DNA of 64,000 nucleotides, from the NCBI RefSeq assembly GCF_964213995.1, contig NC_135820.1, positions 1,054,001 to 1,118,000 on the forward strand, given 5' to 3'. The DNA is from Mustelus asterias (lineage: Eukaryota). The notes below the pieces were generated by a model. It made no database searches. It saw only the letters and a list, made by a program, of their open reading frames with translations, and was not told the DNA's origin. Below, piece by piece: positions 4,087 to 15,223 of this stretch. Position 1 is the first letter of the stretch; each line of letters starts with the position of its first letter. Both the position numbers and the translations under genes were made by a program.

Positions 4087-4139
4087 GGTGGAAGCGTTTC
4101 TCCTCGGACTCTGGGTGTCAGTCGCTGCTACGGAGTCAG
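4087..4139 (+). CDS. Signal-peptide exon of B7-family gene
   Basis: Acceptor TCTCCTTCCCTTTCAG and donor CAG|GTGGGT. 53 nt, phase 2 in and phase 1 out. Encodes xVEAFLLGLWVSVAATES(G), in frame with the IgV exon. Confidence 0.75.
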
Positions 4140-4705
4140 GTGGGTATTATCCCGTTCAGAATTGGGGCGGTTTACATGGAGAGGCCGGGAAAAGCCGGGA
4201 TGGTTCTCCTCGGAGCAGGGAAGGACAAGTGGGAGAATGAATCGAGGCGTTCACAATCACGTGGGATAAATGAGGAGAAAGTGTTTCCAGTGACAGGAGG
4301 CTCGGTAACCAGAGGGGACACAGATTGAAGAGAATCAGGAAAAGAACCAGAGCGGGGGGAGATGAGGAGAATTTTATTTCACACTGAGAGAGATCTCACA
4401 AAGAGCTAGCACAGGAAAGATGGACCAAATGGCCCCCTTGTGCTGCTTGATTCTCAGCTGTCCAAAATCTTGACCACCCTGGGGGCGGGGGGGGGGGGGG
4501 GGGGGGGGGGCGGTATCAGGAGGCTGTTTTGATTGGGTTAAAATAGATTAAAATACCGGGGGGTTGGCATTACTGTCAGTTTCCACCCTCCTCCCAACAT
4601 TGTGGCTTTACCTGCCTCAGCTGATCCACAATTAAGAGGCGAATTACTGTAATCTATAGATCTGAGGCATAGGGTTGGAGCCTAACTGCTGTGACCAAAC
4701 ATCTG

Positions 4706-5178
4706 GAGGACAGTCAGAGACTAATTGCTGTAAGACACATTGTGAGGACAGTTAGAGACTATTGGTTGTAAGACACATTATGAGGACAGTTAGAGGTTAA
4801 TTGCTGTGAGACACATTGTGAGGGCAGTTAAAAGCTAATTGCTGTAAGACACTTTGTGAGGACAGTTAGAGGCTAATTGCTGTAAGACACTTTGTGAGGC
4901 CAGTTAGAGGCTAATTGCTGTGAGACACATTGCGAGGACAGTTAGAGACTAATTGCTGTGAGACACACTGTTGAGGACAGTAAGAGGCTAATTGCTGTGA
5001 GACACATTGTGAGGACAGTGAGAAGTTAATTGCTGTAAGGCACATTGTGAGGACAGTCAGAGGTTAATTGCTGTAAGGCACATTGTGAGGACAGTAAGAG
5101 GCTAATTGTTGTGAGACACATTGTGAGGACACATTGCTGTGACTGACATATCTTTGGGACAGTTAGAGGTTAACTGCT
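4706..5178 (+). repeat. 38-bp tandem minisatellite, about 12 copies
   Basis: Unit GAGGACAGTTAGAGGCTAATTGCTGTGAGACACATTGT; starts at 4706 and 4744. Confidence 0.9.
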
Positions 5179-5686
5179 TTCTTTGTGCAGGAACCTATGT
5201 CCATTCTAGGCCCTGAGCTTTGGTCAAAAATTCGGCCATAAGACCATCACCGTTGAGGCCAAGCTGCGATTGTTGCAAATTGTGACGATCCAACATTATT
5301 TGCAACAATCCATCTTAACTTCAGCGTCGGCGTGGAGGGACCAGGGCAGGTTGTTGGTGATCCGGACACCGAGAAACCTGAAGCTCTCGACCATTTCCAC
5401 GTCATCCCCGTTGCCTGAGATTGTGTGGGGGAGGCAGGTCCAACTTCAGAAGGGGAATCGGATTTTTAATCTGAAGAGGGGAAAATGTTCAGAGATCGGG
5501 GAGGGTGGGGAGAAGGTCGGTGGGAGGTATGGGAAAGGGGGTGGGACAGGGACTGGGCCAATTGCTCATGCAGGGAGCTAGCATCGACACGATGGACTCA
5601 ATGGCCTCCTCCAGTGCTGTATCTGCCCCGCAATTCTCTGACCGTTGATTCCTGCTCTGTATCGATTCAATTCTCTTGTCTGGCAG

Positions 5687-6013
5687 GCTCTACAATTAAC
5701 GTGACCGGGTCTTACCAGGGAGAAGTGGTGCTGCCCTGCAGAGCCTCTGAACAATTGGTCAAGAGGGTGTATTGGCAGAGGACTGACGGTGAATTGGAAG
5801 TGGCGATGGCAGCATATTTCAAGAACGGGGATAGATGCACCACGTGCAGTCCTGGCTACGCAAATCGAACCAGCTTCACCGGTGACTTAGCACATGGCAA
5901 TTACTCTCTCAACCTCGGCAACCTCAGCCTCACCGATGAAGGCCGCTATAATTGTGTGGTTCAACTACATAATGCACCTGTCAAACACCATAACGTACAG
6001 CTGAAAGTCATTG
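5687..6013 (+). CDS. IgV-domain exon of ICOSL/CD276-like B7-family protein
   Basis: Acceptor TTCTCTTGTCTGGCAG, donor G|GTAAGA, phase 1-1, 327 nt. VVLPC...VYWQ...YANRTS...GNYSLNLGNLSLTDEGRYNCVV...VQLKV. Confidence 0.92.
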
Positions 6014-6072
6014 GTAAGACAGGTTTAAACTGCCTTCCTTTGTCATCCCGGTGACCGGCGCCGCAAGGGGTT

Positions 6073-6410
6073 TTTTTTATTCATTCGTGGGACACGGGCA
6101 TCGCCGGCTGGGCCAGCAGTTATTGCCCATCCCTAGGTGCCCGAGGGTAGCTGAGAGTCAACCACATTGCTCTGGAGTCACATGGAGGCCAGACCGCTTA
6201 AAGACGGCAGATTTCCTTCCCTAAAGGACATTAGTCAACCAGATGGGTTTTTCCGACAATGGTTTCATGGTCATCAGTAAATTCGTAATTGCATATTTTT
6301 TATTGAATTCAAATTCCACCAGCGGGATTCGAACCCGGGTCCCCAGAACATCAGCTGAGTTTCTGGATTAATAGTCTGGCGATAATACCGCTCGGCCATC
6401 ACCTCCCCTT
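6073..6410 (-). mobile_element. 3'UTR remnant of CR1/L2-group LINE
   Basis: Begins TTTTTTATTCATTCGTGGGACACGGGCATCGCCGGCTGGGCCAGC, matching the ends at 130, 52525 and 60820. Confidence 0.65.
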
Positions 6411-6688
6411 TAAATGACGTCACAAAAGACCACAGGCCTGTGCTGACCTCACGCCTCGTGGGGCTGGAGGTGTTTAAAGGGGTTTTCGAATATAGAACAG
6501 TACAGGAACAGGCCCTTCGGCCCACAATGTTGTGCTAAACATGACGCCAAATTCAACAAATTCTTTCTGCCTGCCCGTGCTCCATATCCCTCTCTTCTTG
6601 CATATTCATATACTTATCTAAAAACCTCTTAAACGCCAACCCTGGCAGTGAGTTCCACATACCTACCGCTCTCTGTGTAAACAAAATT

Positions 6689-6949
6689 AGTAAGAGTTTT
6701 AACAACACCAGTTTAAAGTCCAACAGGTTTATTTGGTAGCAAATGCCATTAACTTTTGGAGCGCTGCTCCTCTGTCAGATGGAGTGGAAATGTGCTCTCA
6801 AACAAGCAGATATTCACTCCATCTGATGAAGGGGCAGCGCTCCGAAAGCTAATGGCATTTGCTACCAAATAAACCTGTTGGACTTTAACCTGGTGTTGTG
6901 AGACTTCTTACTGTGTTCACCCCAGTCCAACGCCGGCATCTCCACATCA
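6689..6949. mobile_element. Non-autonomous Penelope-like element made of two inverted pseudo-LTRs plus tail
   Basis: 6689-6790 is an imperfect reverse complement of 6815-6912. Tail GTTCACCCCAGTCCAACGCCGGCATCTCCACATC. Flanked by TAAACAAAATT and TAAAAAAAATT. Confidence 0.85.
6819..6855 (+). ncRNA. Minimal type I hammerhead ribozyme motif in Penelope pLTR
   Basis: CCAT-CTGATGA-A-GGGGC-AGC-GCTCC-GAAA-GC-TA-ATGG: stem I CCAT/ATGG, both core boxes, 5-bp stem II, predicted cleavage after CUA. Confidence 0.7.
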
Positions 6950-7415
6950 TAAAAAAAATTACCCCTCACATCTCCTTTTAACTTTCCACTCTCACCCTGA
7001 GTGCATGCCCCCAGACCTTTCAACCCTGGACAAAGATTCTGACTGTCTATCTATCTCTGCCTCTCATAATTTTAGAGACTTCTATCATGTCTCCTCTCAG
7101 CCTCCGCCACTCCAGAGAAAACAACCCGAGTTTGTCCAGCCTCTCCTTACAGCTCACACCCTCTAATCCAGGCAGCATCCTGGTAAACCCCTTCTGCACC
7201 CTCTCCAAAGCGTCTACATCCTTTCTGTAATGTGGCGACCAGAATTGAACGCAATACTCTAATTGCGTCCTAGCCAAAGTTTTCTAAAGCTGCAACATGA
7301 CATCCTGACTTTCATACTTATTGCCCTGACCAATAAAGGCAAGTATGCCACACGCCTTCTTTACCACCCTATCTACTTGTGTGGCCTCTTTCAGGGAGGT
7401 ACGGACTTGAACCCC

Positions 7416-7734
7416 AAGAACATAGAATCCCTACAGTGCAGAAGGAGGCCATTTGGCCCATCGAGTCTGCACCCATGGCAATCCCACCCAGGCCCTATCC
7501 CCATAACCACATGCAATTACCCTCCTAATCCCCCTGACACTAAGGGGCAATTTAGCATGGCCAATCCACCTAACCCGCACATCTTTGGACTGTGGGAGGA
7601 AAACGGAGCACCCGGAGGAAACCCACGCAGACACGAGGAGAATGTGCAAACTCCACACAGACAGTGACCCCAGCTGGCAATCGAACCCAGGTCCCTGGCG
7701 CTGTGAGGCAGCAGTGCTAACCACTGTGCCACCC
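7416..7734 (-). mobile_element. HE1 V-SINE, full length, CR1/HER1-like tail
   Basis: Head, V-core and tail GGTGCAGACTCGATGGGCCAAATGGCCTCCTTCTGCACTGTAGGGATTCTATG. Confidence 0.9.
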
Positions 7735-8119
7735 TATGTATCCCTCTGTATGTCAGTGCTGTTCAGGGTCCTGCCATTAACTGTATCATTACCCTGAATA
7801 TTTGATCTCCCAAAGTCCAACACTTGACACTTGCCCGGATTAAACTCCATCTGCCATTTCTCCGCCCATATCCGCGACTGATCGATATCCTGCTGTATCC
7901 AGAGTTTGACAACAGTAAGCAGAGTGAGAAGGGGTGGAGGGGGAAGAGTCCAGAACCAGGATGAAGAAAAGTAACAATGGGAGCCATAAGACTTGGGGCA
8001 GAATTAGGCCATTCGGCCCATCGTCTCAGCTCCGCCATTCGATCATAGCTGATAAGTTTCTCAATCCCATTCTCCCACCTTTTCCCCCGTAAATCCACCC
8101 GCCACCTCCCCCCTCCGAA

Positions 8120-8613
8120 ATCTCACCAACCTTCACAGACGCACCATAGAAAGCATCCTTTCTGGCTGTATCACAGCTTGGTATGGCTACTGCTCTGCCC
8201 AAGACTGCAAGGAACTACAAAGGTCGTGAGTGTAGCCCAATCCATCACTCAAACCAGTCTCCTATCCATTGACTCTGTCTACACTTCCCACTGCCTCGGG
8301 AAAAGCAGCCAGCATAATTAAGGACCCCACTCACCCCGGACATTCTCTCTTCCACCTTCTTCCATCGGGAAAAAGATAGAAAAGTCTGAGATCACGTACC
8401 AACCGACTCAAGAACAGCTTCTTCCCTGCTGCTGTCTGACTTTTGAATGGATTTACCTTGCATTAAGTTGATCTTTATCTACACCCTGGCTATGTCTGTA
8501 AAACTGCATTCTGCACTCTCTCCTTTCCTTCTCTATGAACAGTATGCTTTGTCTGTATAGTGCGTAAGAAACAATACTTTTCACTACACACGTGACAATA
8601 ATAAATCAAATCA
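8120..8613 (+). mobile_element. Rex1/Babar-like LINE 3' fragment
   Basis: TIESILSGCITAWYG...IIKDPTHPGHSLFHLLPSG...TNRLKNSFFPAA; ends GTGACAATAATAAATCAAATCAA. Confidence 0.75.
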
Positions 8614-8922
8614 ACTCACAGCTCCAGGGACCTGGGTTCGATTCCCGGCTTGGGTCACTGTCTGTGTGGAGTTTGCACATTCTCCTCGTGTCTGCGTGGG
8701 TTTCCTCCAGGTGCTCCAGTTTCCTCCCACAGTCCAAAGATTTGCGAGGTAGGTTGATTGGCCATGCTAAAAATTGCCCCTTAGCGTCCTGAGATGCGTA
8801 GGTTAGAGGGATTAGCGGGTAAATATGTAGGGATATGGGGGTAGTGCCTGGGTGGGATTGTGATCGGTGCAGACTCGATGGGCCGAATGGCCTCTTTCTG
8901 CACTGTTGGGTTTCTATGATTC
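8614..8922 (+). mobile_element. HE1 V-SINE, 5'-clipped
   Basis: GGGTTCGATTCC B-box, V-core and HER1-like tail. Confidence 0.85.
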
Positions 8923-9454
8923 TAACTCAAAAACCTTTAATTCCATTACCAATCAAGAACCTATCTATCTCTGTCTTAAATGCACTCAATGACCCGGCCT
9001 CCACAGCCCCCTGTGGCAATGAATTCCACAGATTCACCACCAGACAGGCCATTCGGCGGGAGAGCAGGATATCTGGAAGCCCAAATGGGAGTTGGACATC
9101 TGGAACTCCCTTCCCTAACCCCCACCCCAAAATAAATTCAGTCGAGGTGGGTGGGAGGGTCAGTTGGAAATTTCAAAACAAGGAAGTTGTTTTTCTGGAG
9201 TTTGTTTTTTGCCGGTGCGGACAGCGTCTGAGGGGTCGAGTTGGGTTCCGGGGAATTTTAAGACCCGGGGGACCCGCCCCACAACGGGGAAGGGGGGGGG
9301 GATGGACAGAATGGCCTCCTCCTCTTCCCGTATCCCTCCGTGCCCCCCCCCCTTCCCAATGGAGCGAGGCGCCGACTGCCAGTGGATGGCGTTTGCCAGT
9401 GGCGATGCCCCTGGCGGTCGAATAGCCCATCGAAATCGATGCAGACTGAGGCAG

Positions 9455-9650
9455 GTGGGGTGGTGGTAGTGGGGGGAGGGTGGAGGTGGGGGCGGAGGGG
9501 GGGTGATGGGGGCGGAGGGGGGGTGGTGGTAGTGGGGGGAGGGTGGAGGTGGGGGCAGAGGGGGGGTGGTGGTAGTGGGGGGAGGTTGGAGGTGGGGGCG
9601 GAGGGGGGGGGTGGTGGGGGTGGAGGGGGGGGGGGGTGGTGGGTGGGGAG
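9455..9650 (+). repeat. G-rich low-complexity repeat
   Basis: Reiterated GGTGGTGGTAGTGGGGGGAGGGTGGAGGTGGGGGCGGAGGGGGG. Confidence 0.9.
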
Positions 9651-9713
9651 GCAATTGGTTGGCCGATCTCCCGCTCACCGTGACTGACTCCCTGTCTTTC
9701 ATCAAAATGGCAG

Positions 9714-10004
9714 CACAGTACAGCGAGCCGAGCATCAACGTGACGAGGCTGGAGAACAGGCATCCAAGCAAGCAGGCTGAACTCACCTGCTCGAGCCAAG
9801 GGGGCTACCCAGAGGCGAGAGTGCGCTGGGTAAACATAACCGACAACGGCACTTTCCCCGAGGAGCTCATACAGACAGAGACCAAGGTTGACGCACTGGG
9901 ACTGTACGTGCTAACCAGCATCCTGAGAGTTAATGCCAGCAGTGACCCCATCGCCTGTCACATCATCACCAACATGGCAAAAGACGTCAAAAAATCCTCA
10001 GAAG
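9714..10004 (+). CDS. IgC-domain exon of ICOSL/CD276-like B7-family protein
   Basis: Acceptor ...GGCAG, donor G|GTGAGT, phase 1-1, 291 nt. AQYSEP...LTCSSQGGYPEARVRWVNITDN...GLYVLTSILRV...IACHI resembles ICOSL GYPRPNVYWINKTDN and GLYDVVSVLRI. Confidence 0.92.
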
Positions 10005-10155
10005 GTGAGTGTGTGAGGAGCGCTCCAGGAGCTGGCAAAAGTGTTTCATTGTCACGTTACCCCGGGAGTGATCCATTGGGAGAATCGAGGGGGTTGTCAA
10101 GGGAACTATCGTGGGAAGGATTCCCAGGATCCTCCGGGTTCAACATGAAACGGAA

Positions 10156-11730
10156 AGGGAGTGCCGCACTGTCAGAGGGTCAGTGCTGAGGGAGTGCCGC
10201 ACTGTCAGAGGGTCAGTGCTGAGGGAGTGCCGCACTGTCAGAGGGTCAGTGCTGAGGGAGTGCCGCACTGTCAGAGGGTCAGTGCTGAGGGAGTGCTGCA
10301 CTGTCAGAGGGTCAGTACTGAGGGAGTGCCGCTCTGTCAGAGGGTCAGTACTGAGGGAGTGCCGCTCTGTCAGAGGGTCAGTACTGAGGGAGTGCCGCTC
10401 TGTCAGAGGGTCAGTGCTGAGGGAGTGCCGCACTGTCAGAGGGTCAGTACTGAGGGAGTGCCGCACTGTCAGAGGGTCAGTACTGAGGGAGTGCCGCTCT
10501 GTCAGAGGGTCAGTACTGAGGGAGTGCCGCACTGTCAGAGGGTCAGTACTGAGGGAGTGCTGCACTGTCAGAGGGTCAGTACTGAGGGAGTGCCGCTCTG
10601 TCAGAGGGTCAGTACTGAGGGAGTGCCGCTCTGTCAGAGGGTCAGTACTGAGGGAGTGCCGCTCTGTCAGAGGGTCAGTACTGAGGGAGTGCCGCACTGT
10701 CAGAGGGTCAGTACTGAGGGAGTGCCGCTCTGTCAGAGGGTCAGTGCTGAGGGCGTGCCGCACTGTCAGAGGGTCAGTACTAAGGGAGTGCCGCACTGTC
10801 AGAGGGTCAGTACTGGGGGAGTGCCGCACTGTCAGAGGGTCAGTACTGAGGGAGTGCCGCACTGTCAGAGGGTCAGTACTGAGGGAGTGCTGCACAGTCA
10901 GAGGGTCAGTGCTGAGGGAGTGCTGCACTGTCAGAGGGTCAGTGCTGAGGGAGTGCCGCACTGTCAGAGGGTCAGTACTGAGGGAGTGCCGCACTGTCAG
11001 AGGGTCAGTACTGAGGGAGTGCCGCACAGTCAGAGGGTCAGTACTGAGGGAGTGTCGCACTGTCAGAGGGTCAGTACTGAGGGAGTGCCGCACTGTCAGA
11101 GGGTCAGTACTGAGGGAGTGCTGCACTGTCAGAGGGTCAGTACTGAGGGAGTGCCACACTGTCAGAGGGTCAGTGCTGAGGGAGTGTTGCACTGTCAGAG
11201 GGTCAGTACTGAGGGAGTGCCGCACTGTCAGAGGGTCAGTACTGAGGGAGTGCTGCACTGTTAGAGGGTCAGTGCTGAGGGAGTGTTGCACTGTCAGAGG
11301 GTCAGTGCTGAGGGAGTGTTGCACAGTCAGAGGGTCAGTACTGAGGGAGTGCCGCACTGTCAGAGGGTCACTACTGAGGGAGTGCTGCACTGTTAGAGGG
11401 TCAGTACTGAGGGAGTGCCGCACTGTCAGAGGGTCAGTACTGAGGGAGTGCCGCATTGTCAGAGGGTCACTACTGAGGGAGTGCTGCACTGTTAGAGGGT
11501 CAGTACTGAGGGAGTGCCGCACTGTCAGAGGGTCAGTACTGAGGGAGTGCTGCACTGTCAGAGGGTCAGTACTGAGGGAGTGCCGCACTGTCAGAGGGTC
11601 AGTACTGAGGGAGTGCCGCACTGCCAGAGGGTCAGTGCTGAGGGAGTGCCGCACTGTCAGAGGGTCAGTACTGAGGGAGTGCCGCACTGCCAGAGGGTCA
11701 GTACTGAGGGAGTGCCGCACTGTCAGAGGG
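10156..11730 (+). repeat. 33-bp minisatellite, about 47 copies, filling most of an intron
   Basis: Unit GAGGGAGTGCCGCACTGTCAGAGGGTCAGTACT. Confidence 0.97.
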
Positions 11731-11812
11731 TCTGCTGGGAGTGTGAAGTTACAGGAACAGGAGGAAGCTTTATCTAATCACTCTCTCTCTTTCTTCCCTG
11801 TTTTTCACTCAG

Positions 11813-11931
11813 TGCATCTCAAAGAACAGTGTTCAGAAATGTTCACAAATATTGCTGCAGCAACCAACCTGAAGATGCCGTCCTTCCTCTTGTGTTTGCT
11901 GATGAGTTCCCCCTCACTCTTTGTGAACTAA
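11813..11931 (+). CDS. Terminal coding exon of B7-family gene, GPI-signal-like C-terminus
   Basis: Strong pyrimidine tract ending TTTTTCACTCAG, phase 1. (V)HLKEQCSEMFTNIAAATNLKMPSFLLCLLMSSPSLFVN-stop. Confidence 0.72.
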
Positions 11932-12177
11932 CTCACTCCCTCCTCAGCTGTGAGTGAGTCTGCACTGTGGGCAGTGCGTGGACACAGACTGGCACATGCC
12001 ACATCTCCCCCCACACCCCCCGTCTCCTCTCCCCCTGCCCCTTTGCTGAAACACCCTTGTGCATGCACATCATGGTCGAATAATCTCCCTGACAAGAGCC
12101 ATCTCGGTTCACACCAGAGTGTGGGGAGCTGAGCCACACATGGGGAGATTCGCATAGTGTGTGAGTGTGTGTGTGAG

Positions 12178-12865: not shown

Positions 12866-13789
12866 TGTGAGCGCATGCGAGAGAGAGTGTGTGTGACTGA
12901 GTGTTGGTGGGGGGGGTAAGTGATGAAATTCCTCTTGCATTCAGCGATCTCTGGACTGCGATGAATCCTGGACTTGCTCCGACTGCGCTGTCTGGGAACG
13001 CGGTCGCTCTCTGTCTTGCCGGGAGCTGGAAACGGTGACACCGCTCCGGGTGTGGGATAGCGTGCGATGCTTTTGATTCGAATTTGGATCAACAGTTACA
13101 AGTTGGAATGAATTTGAAATCGAATTGGGGGAATTTGACTCTGGCAGAGAGGCGGCGGCTACGTGAATGCGGGTTGTTGCTGCTGCTGAGGAGTCATGTT
13201 GAGCCTGGTTGCCGTGGTGACTGAGGAATGGGAGGACGTTCAGGAGATTGAGGGGGGGTTTTGTTCGGTTGGTGAAGCAGCCTGGAGGGAGCGGGCCTGA
13301 GCCCGAGGCTGGATTACAGCAGCCTGAGGCCGAGGCCCCAAACCAGAGCCTGTCGTCGAGTGGTGCTGATCTCCCGTCTGGAATATCGGGAAGAGACAAT
13401 GACCAGTTCTGGCATTCCCTCCACAGCGGAAACCACCCCCCCGCCCGGTGCGTGCACCTGCCCCCCGAACAGCAACAGAGCCACAGAGCTCAGTCCGGGC
13501 CTAGCAGAAATGCAGCTCCTGCCGAGGCCTCACCAACACCTGACAGAAACGCGAGGGAACGGACAAAACTATTGTGAAACTGCGGCCTCTGCCTCATTGG
13601 GAATGTCGGATTCACTGTTTTGAGACATATTAAACCACGATGATGAAGCATTGGGTGATTATTTCACATCCCACTGACATGGCATCAATGCTGAATTCTG
13701 GCTCACCAGCGCAGACTCAACCCGCTACACACCTCCCACCCTCCAAAACATCAGCATGTCCAAATCTCTGCATCTCCCCCCCCTCCCCC

Positions 13790-14931: not shown

Positions 14932-15223
14932 TGTGGTGAACCATCGTTGGTTCCCACTGGATAGTACTGAGCCAGGGTCTGGCCAGTACTACAAGGATGT
15001 ACATATGTTGCTGTTGGGTTAGGGATGGGTTGTTACACCTTTGTACTGTAGTGTTGTGGCACATCCCAGTTAGGCTCCGCCTCCTGGGAGAGGTATAAAG
15101 GTCCCTGCTCTGGCTGGGACCCCTCAGCCTGGGATCGTGTATATAATTGTTGGCTGCTTCGTTACAGCAAATAAAAGCCTTTATTTCCTGAGCATCGAGC
15201 CTCGTGTATGATAACGCGCATCA
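14932..15223 (+). mobile_element. Probable solo LTR (292 bp)
   Basis: TG...CA ends, TATAAA near 15093, AATAAA 15170-15175. Left flank CTCTC; right flank CTC then gap, compatible with a 5-bp TSD. Confidence 0.65.

Follow-up and report, generated by a model that had tools for sequence, protein, structure and literature searches.

The stretch of DNA analysed here, hereafter the window, comprises 64,000 nucleotides of the genome of the shark Mustelus asterias (contig NC_135820.1, positions 1,054,001 to 1,118,000, forward strand) and holds most of a gene for a B7-type co-signalling protein, the C-terminus of which reads as a predicted glycosylphosphatidylinositol (GPI) signal rather than a transmembrane helix with cytoplasmic tail. 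The features of the gene are compiled below; positions are those of the window unless a contig is given, and residue numbers refer to the complete protein.

G000:C20:1052368-1052390, plus strand: coding exon 1, 23 bases with the ATG (MRICQCS) and a phase-2 donor, 1.6 kb upstream of the window
4087..4139, plus strand: coding exon 2, bulk of the signal peptide (VEAFLLGLWVSVAATES), a role assigned by inspection
5687..6013, plus strand: IgV exon with C43-C115, the C-strand residues R52-x-Y54-W55-Q56, extra cysteines C76/C79 and four sequons (Pfam V-set, 6.9e-13)
9714..10004, plus strand: IgC exon (CD80-like C2-set) with C160-C216 and four sequons (Pfam PF08205, 1.5e-8; PF22705, 2e-8)
10156..11732, no strand: tandem array with a 33-base unit (47.8 copies) within the last coding intron, free of stops in the frame of the tail exon
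11813..11931, plus strand: coding part of the tail exon, with linker, predicted GPI signal and stop, read from the sequence; its first 26 bases recur in a contig from run X1 (see below)
11848..11862, plus strand: predicted omega region N244-I-A246-A-A (omega at N244 or A246), from our own rule and an alignment
11884..11928, plus strand: terminal hydrophobic stretch F256-N270, best 19-mer hydropathy 1.51, below a typical B7 transmembrane helix
11932..11955, plus strand: 3' untranslated region of 18 bases, then a GT donor at 11950 (sequence)

The four window exons (4087-4139, 5687-6013, 9714-10004 and 11813-11931) carry AG/GT ends and join through three phase-1 junctions into a single open frame with the terminus SPSLFVN-stop, as an earlier note on this DNA had proposed; they hold no ATG, the start codon being provided by the 23-base exon outside the window. 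The five-exon protein is identical to the NCBI model XP_078092350.1 (Mustelus asterias, 'CD276 antigen homolog', 270 residues), to which the IgV exon matches at 100% and which carries eight more N-terminal residues than the window exons. The eight N-x-S/T sequons that the note had counted were all located, at residues 30, 85, 97, 104, 143, 175, 179 and 208. At the N-terminus, residues 11-22 are hydrophobic and residues 10-21 form a helix in the structure model; by inspection this is a signal peptide, presumably cleaved near A22. The note had also remarked that the last exon lies hidden inside a repeat reading frame: the tail exon is indeed the end of a 619-codon open frame running through the array, and it is masked in lists of open reading frames because the array is open in its frame. 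Behind the stop, the donor at 11950 has a candidate acceptor at 12944, and the two would delimit a possible intron in the 3' untranslated region. Some 3 kb past the stop, positions 14932-15222 (about 290 bases with TG...CA ends, a TATA-like box and AATAAA) resemble the long terminal repeat of a retroelement, an element that could serve as the source of a poly(A) signal.

Nine orthologues were found, in Scyliorhinus torazame, Carcharodon, Heterodontus, Stegostoma, Narcine, Pristis, Hypanus and Mobula and as one Logan protein, giving ten clade proteins from ten sources (five sharks, four rays and the Logan protein). Eight of the orthologues came from a full HMMER search (best 150 of 1994 matches) and that of Mobula from a separate word-seeded search (7 proteins); word-seeded protein searches otherwise returned only the query. 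NCBI names clade members ICOS ligand-like, CD276-like or CD86-like, and the ten form one clade on the IgV and IgC columns alone (100/100 under both LG and a mixture model).

The special feature of this clade is its C-terminal tail, in which a small-residue motif, a spacer and a short, weakly hydrophobic end follow one another in every member: the best 19-mer hydropathy is 1.26-1.88, with 0-6 residues beyond and no cytoplasmic part (10 of 10), compared with 2.29-3.37 and 14-69 residues beyond in all 14 transmembrane comparators from the same searches. Small-residue motifs stand 21-33 residues from the end (AAA or NIA here; SGA, SSA, GTA, NAA, SGS, GSA or SGG elsewhere), A246 aligns with the orthologues' SGA/SSA/SGS motifs, and both N244 and A246 satisfy our own omega rule in Mustelus asterias. 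The complete rule, with omega, spacer and tail terms, is passed by 8 of 10 clade members, by none of the 14 comparators, by 17 of 709 mock last exons drawn from 404 kb of the Mustelus asterias genome and by 6-15% of tail shuffles; a neighbouring Ly6/uPAR-type gene has a last exon that satisfies it as well. The count among mock exons, taken together with the presence of the tail type in 10 of 10 clade members, puts the tail beyond chance. Since the same type occurs in all ten shark and ray members, the tail appears to be an ancient, conserved trait whose most plausible reading is a GPI signal. The tail sequences themselves are poorly conserved and only the layout is retained across the clade; variable sequence with a kept layout is what one expects of GPI signals. 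In terms of sequence, the earlier description of a B7 protein without transmembrane helix or cytoplasmic tail and with a GPI-like end is thereby upheld and extends to the nine orthologues. Alternatively, the terminal stretch might span the membrane as a short anchor, leaving next to no cytoplasmic tail, as was later reported for B7-H4, a precedent to which the tails of Scyliorhinus, Stegostoma and Narcine (19-mer hydropathy 1.82-1.88) lend some weight. Yet each of the ten clade tails falls below all 14 transmembrane comparators, the summed insertion scores are 0.9-6.7 versus -6.2 to 0.7, and only 0-1 basic residues follow the stretch, which makes such an anchor quite unlikely.

Evidence at the transcript level stems from four runs compared with window positions 9660-10135 (IgC exon). 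Run X1, presumed RNA from another organism that is a close relative, yielded a single 1162-base contig (depth 91) over 9713-10000, with 15 differences from the IgC exon in 288 bases; its two loose ends correspond to the last bases of the IgV exon and to the first 26 bases of the tail exon. This contig is a spliced molecule of the close relative, and both the 6013/9714 and the 10004/11813 joins predicted in the earlier note are present in it. Runs X22 and X16 gave no match on the IgC exon and X21 one intronic piece, and no run on record as RNA matched the 8-kb gene stretch. Eleven listed differences to the relative divide into seven non-synonymous and four synonymous ones, too few to judge selection; the codon of the unpaired C238 reads otherwise in the relative, so this cysteine is not conserved.

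It is conceivable that the main transcript ends in a genuine transmembrane exon located beyond the tail exon, with the GPI-type form a minor product or an artefact of annotation. In favour of this, the stop is followed by a donor site, a downstream stretch of 712 N bases is unreadable, and contigs drop rare transcript variants. What speaks against this is the X1 contig, which runs unbranched from the IgC exon into the tail exon, as well as the phase-1 hydrophobic candidates from IgC to the next gene, 10 in number, none of which encodes a transmembrane helix flanked by basic residues. Eight 19-mers exceed a hydropathy of 1.8, seven of them in repeats and one in a unique stretch judged non-exonic by eye, and none of 12 full or isoform clade models has a transmembrane tail. 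In the readable sequence between IgC and the next gene, no convincing alternative transmembrane exon was identified, and a downstream anchor seems extremely improbable. Read-through of the intron behind IgC, which would append a 61-residue soluble tail, was considered and rejected, there being no evidence for such a form.

The putative receptor face is preserved as well: R52, Y54, W55 and Q56 are invariant in all ten clade members and align with RIYWQ of CD80. In the available text of PMC7545189, ICOSL is described to bind ICOS via the C-strand residues Y51, Y53 and Q55 and a PPP motif of the receptor. At C14:90.27 Mb, the genome of Mustelus asterias carries a V exon of CD28/CTLA4-like type with HPPPY; another such exon, more diverged, lies 75 kb off. 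A complex model of residues 26-231 with the V domain of the former scored 0.73, versus 0.01 for the best of three controls; the runs agree in at least 97% of contacts, the predicted local distance difference test score (pLDDT) of the partner is at least 83, and the PPPY loop is placed on Y54/Q56. Of the pairs used to gauge the mark applied to such models, 51 of 78 solved ones attain it, as do 2 of 108 mismatched ones (in eukaryotes, 71 of 105 and 2 of 126). As comparable complexes have been solved, the model speaks for likeness rather than for binding. The protein is likely to engage a shark CD28/CTLA4-type receptor on T cells. The shark cassette receptors are not singly orthologous to CD28, CTLA4 or ICOS (PMC11599192), which is consistent with a ligand tree that does not settle the sister group (see below); ligand pairing is left open in the accessible part of that paper.

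A GPI-anchored protein with a different partner, be it another CD28-family member, an unrelated receptor or an adhesion molecule, may also be envisaged, given that the CD28 family of sharks comprises many genes and lacks an ICOS orthologue (PMC11599192, same portion), that a clade-specific extra cysteine sits in the C'-C'' region (C70 in 9 of 10), and that a single receptor was modelled. The invariant C-strand face and the complex model point the other way, and such a partner is considered very doubtful.

On balance, the protein is probably GPI-anchored, with a CD28-type binding face and without a tail, a reading based on sequence features to which we assign a probability of about 0.62. Several points weigh against it. 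The thresholds of the GPI rule were chosen after viewing the sequences. Carcharodon fails the rule with an 11-mer of 1.78 against a cut-off of 1.8, Hypanus fails on omega or spacer terms, and the ten clade tails share descent and are not independent. The X1 contig is from another species, reaches only the first bases of the tail exon and does not cover the stop. R-x-Y-W-Q is also found in several transmembrane shark paralogues, and the pass of the complex model may reflect memory of solved CTLA4-B7 and ICOS-ICOSL structures and does not specify the receptor. For B7-H4 itself, an initial description as GPI-linked was followed by a report of a transmembrane protein (PMC2760136, in part). Finally, the tail of Mustelus asterias is among the weaker ones (best 11-mer 1.92, FLLCLLM followed by SSPS), and one Stegostoma model isoform (P0026) lacks the tail exon. 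The latter two observations would also fit a protein that escapes GPI processing and leaves the cell by secretion or immediate release, to compete in soluble form with the transmembrane paralogues for their receptor, much as soluble B7-H4 is a decoy in mice (same part of PMC2760136). A purely secreted protein would, on the other hand, have no reason to keep a small-residue motif, placed 21-30 residues before the end, and a hydrophobic terminus in sharks and rays alike, and this possibility is judged unlikely.

Under the favoured GPI-anchored reading, the C-terminal 25-27 residues would be swapped for a GPI anchor at A246 or N244, leaving a CD80/ICOSL-class B7 protein with two Ig domains on the outer face of the membrane. 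It would deliver a one-way co-signal with neither reverse signalling nor tail-based control; phospholipases could release the ligand, which would then act as a competitor in soluble form. Absence of a tail does not necessarily make a ligand a decoy, because engineered GPI-CD80 co-stimulates T cells (review PMC5036375, in part) and removal of the ICOSL tail barely alters internalisation (PMC8597029, in part). As to its origin, the gene probably goes back to duplication of a transmembrane B7 gene and shortening of the transmembrane exon before the shark-ray split; exon shortening is suggested by the phase-1 acceptor and the donor remaining after the stop.

Membership in the B7 family, as stated in the earlier note, is borne out by the Pfam V-set and CD80-like C2-set matches and by the trees, in which the clade groups with CD80, ICOSL and three other shark lineages (85/95 under LG, 99/98 under the mixture model), apart from CD276. 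The LG tree has 35 rows and the mixture tree 32, without bowfin, the intronless C22 gene and P0138; named PD-L1, VTCN1 or HHLA2 are not among the rows. P0137 we take to be ICOSL-like, and P0073, P0146 and P0147 to be CD276, labels given by recognition. As sister group, ICOSL appears at 21/73 in one tree and is absent from this position in the other, and approximately unbiased (AU) tests do not reject joins to CD80 (p 0.33), to the tandem paralogues (p 0.49) or to CD276 (p 0.088). Searched against the PDB with the clade profile, the single V+C match is highest for ICOSL (120 bits), followed by CD276 (97-101 per pair), CD86 (88), CD80 (80) and PD-L1 (76); the structure model (pLDDT 83.4) has ICOSL as its top three fold matches. 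By similarity, then, the closest resemblance is to ICOSL. The label 'ICOSL-like' of the earlier note holds in this sense and not as a statement of orthology: the tree cannot place the gene, and it does not lie at the TRAPPC10/PWP2 block.

An assignment as CD276 orthologue was rejected, a separate gene at C70:14.51 Mb grouping with CD276 (100/99), albeit with the AU p of 0.088 for the join; as another gene occupies the CD276 position, 'CD276 antigen homolog' is a best-hit name. The gene is an additional paralogue of the CD80/ICOSL class that has an ordinary transmembrane copy nearby. No chimaera or bony-fish members of the clade were seen among the best 150 of 1994 HMMER matches or the 7 word-seeded proteins, which does not prove their absence, and atlas look-alikes of the Carcharodon orthologue belong to generic Ig clusters. 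With respect to the additional cysteines, nine of the ten clade members have C70 with a second cysteine a few residues on, and Mustelus asterias has F70 and a new C79 by C76 (CTTC), as if the extra disulfide had shifted.

Another B7 gene is found 70 kb downstream in the same orientation (L012, L013; G000:C20:1128925-1142086), with signal, IgV (1132751), IgC (1136870) and a true transmembrane exon (1141910-1142086) followed by KKRR; its IgC is very near that of a paralogue on the unplaced contig C3057. In Heterodontus, the accession number of the transmembrane orthologue directly follows that of the GPI-type one, a hint that the tandem pair exists there too. Additional paralogues, transmembrane or unplaced, are located at C21:29.82 Mb, with no neighbour identified in the surrounding 140 kb, and on C3057. 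Because transmembrane paralogues exist, the GPI-type gene is an additional copy and not the replacement of a sole ligand.

Directly upstream on the same contig there is a cluster of MAG/Siglec-type V and C2 exons (G000:C20:0.12-0.99 Mb). Downstream (G000:C20:1172468-1196084 and 1241989-1252016) follow Ly6/uPAR-type exons on the minus strand, one with a GPI-like end, and then a tectonin (fish-egg-lectin-like) gene, with a nectin-like V exon on C20 at 3.97 Mb. In human, genes of these types are located at 19q13; 19q13-like markers are found on unplaced contigs (one LSR/ILDR-type gene on C3520, XRCC1 on C1702). The neighbours of human ICOSLG are TRAPPC10-PWP2-GATD3 and AIRE. In the shark, C17 carries the exons of TRAPPC10 and PWP2-like type, C3 the HSR-domain genes and C20 the GPI-type gene, so that synteny with ICOSLG is not borne out. 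The 300 kb beside TRAPPC10 contain no B7-type V exon and one weak C2-set exon, recognised as CADM-like, and among the best candidates of genome searches with ICOSL-like and CD80 proteins there was no B7 gene near TRAPPC10 or ILDR genes.

Other observations concern the wider genome. Two LSR/ILDR-family genes stand in tandem (L042, L043; G000:C17:72.20-72.25 Mb), two CD28H-like V exons with EIPPP adjoin a B7-type gene (L045, L046, L035; G000:C17:70.77-70.95 Mb), that is, a receptor and its possible ligand, and a B7-like gene at G000:C22:12.49 Mb (L038) encodes two V+C pairs within a single unbroken frame (about 494 codons), with no introns between the domains. Upstream of the gene, a retrotransposon pol frame (RNase H, integrase) occupies L004:3519-5095 (G000:C20:1.017-1.019 Mb). 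Window positions 16251-45028 are taken up by a long 69-base tandem array broken by copies of one dispersed element, and tandem repeat makes up about half of the 264-kb region.

Taken together, a slightly better than even case can be made that elasmobranchs have kept a natural GPI-anchored CD28/CTLA4 ligand since before the shark-ray split, paired with a transmembrane sister in a Siglec/Ly6 region and with no counterpart among the bony-vertebrate matches listed. The literature searched, which did not include several key papers on B7 evolution, gave no account of a GPI-type B7 in cartilaginous fish or of this clade, and the word GPI is absent from the available main text of PMC11599192, PMC13262535 and PMC12151841. 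GPI anchoring of a natural B7 ligand would be a mode unreported in this literature. If true, it would represent a natural GPI-linked B7, a claim once made for B7-H4 and later disputed, and shark T cells would receive a one-way, releasable or transferable co-signal that in mammals has only been engineered. In the accessible portion of PMC11599192, ligands of the shark CD28/CTLA4 cassette are not assigned; the clade provides a specific candidate whose predicted anchor is unusual, and the adjacent GPI-type and transmembrane paralogues offer a natural matched pair for studying the purpose of a B7 tail. NCBI already lists the gene models, with names that mislead; other Ig families are known to switch anchors, and in the present case the anchor is a prediction.

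Among known systems, ICOSLG (B7-H2, CD275) shares with the shark protein the best PDB profile match, the top fold, the YWQ face and the IgC motif W-x-N-x-T/S-D-N. The ICOSLG signal peptide is split over two exons, as in the shark gene. The differences are the missing transmembrane helix and tail, the unsupported orthology, a location away from TRAPPC10/PWP2 and the lack of an ICOS orthologue in sharks (PMC11599192, in part). CD80/CD86 and teleost CD80/86 have the same IgV-IgC layout, with R-x-Y-W-Q aligned to CD80 and the wider grouping at 99/98; unlike the shark protein, they are type I transmembrane proteins, in grass carp too (PMC9245511, in part), and the shark gene is not on the contig bearing two ILDR-type genes. 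CD276 (B7-H3) is the top phmmer match for single exons, but the shark genome has its own separate CD276. B7-H4 (VTCN1) resembles the shark protein as the B7 member once proposed to be GPI-linked and differs in the transmembrane form reported later (PMC2760136, in part); no named B7-H4 was included in the tree. A parallel in anchoring is that of GPI-anchored CEACAM5/6 and transmembrane CEACAM1, close Ig-family paralogues that differ in anchor and in effect (PMC2175204, in part). CEACAMs belong to another family and the comparison is one of analogy; in this capacity, the CEACAM pair could serve as a model for how a GPI/transmembrane B7 pair might work.

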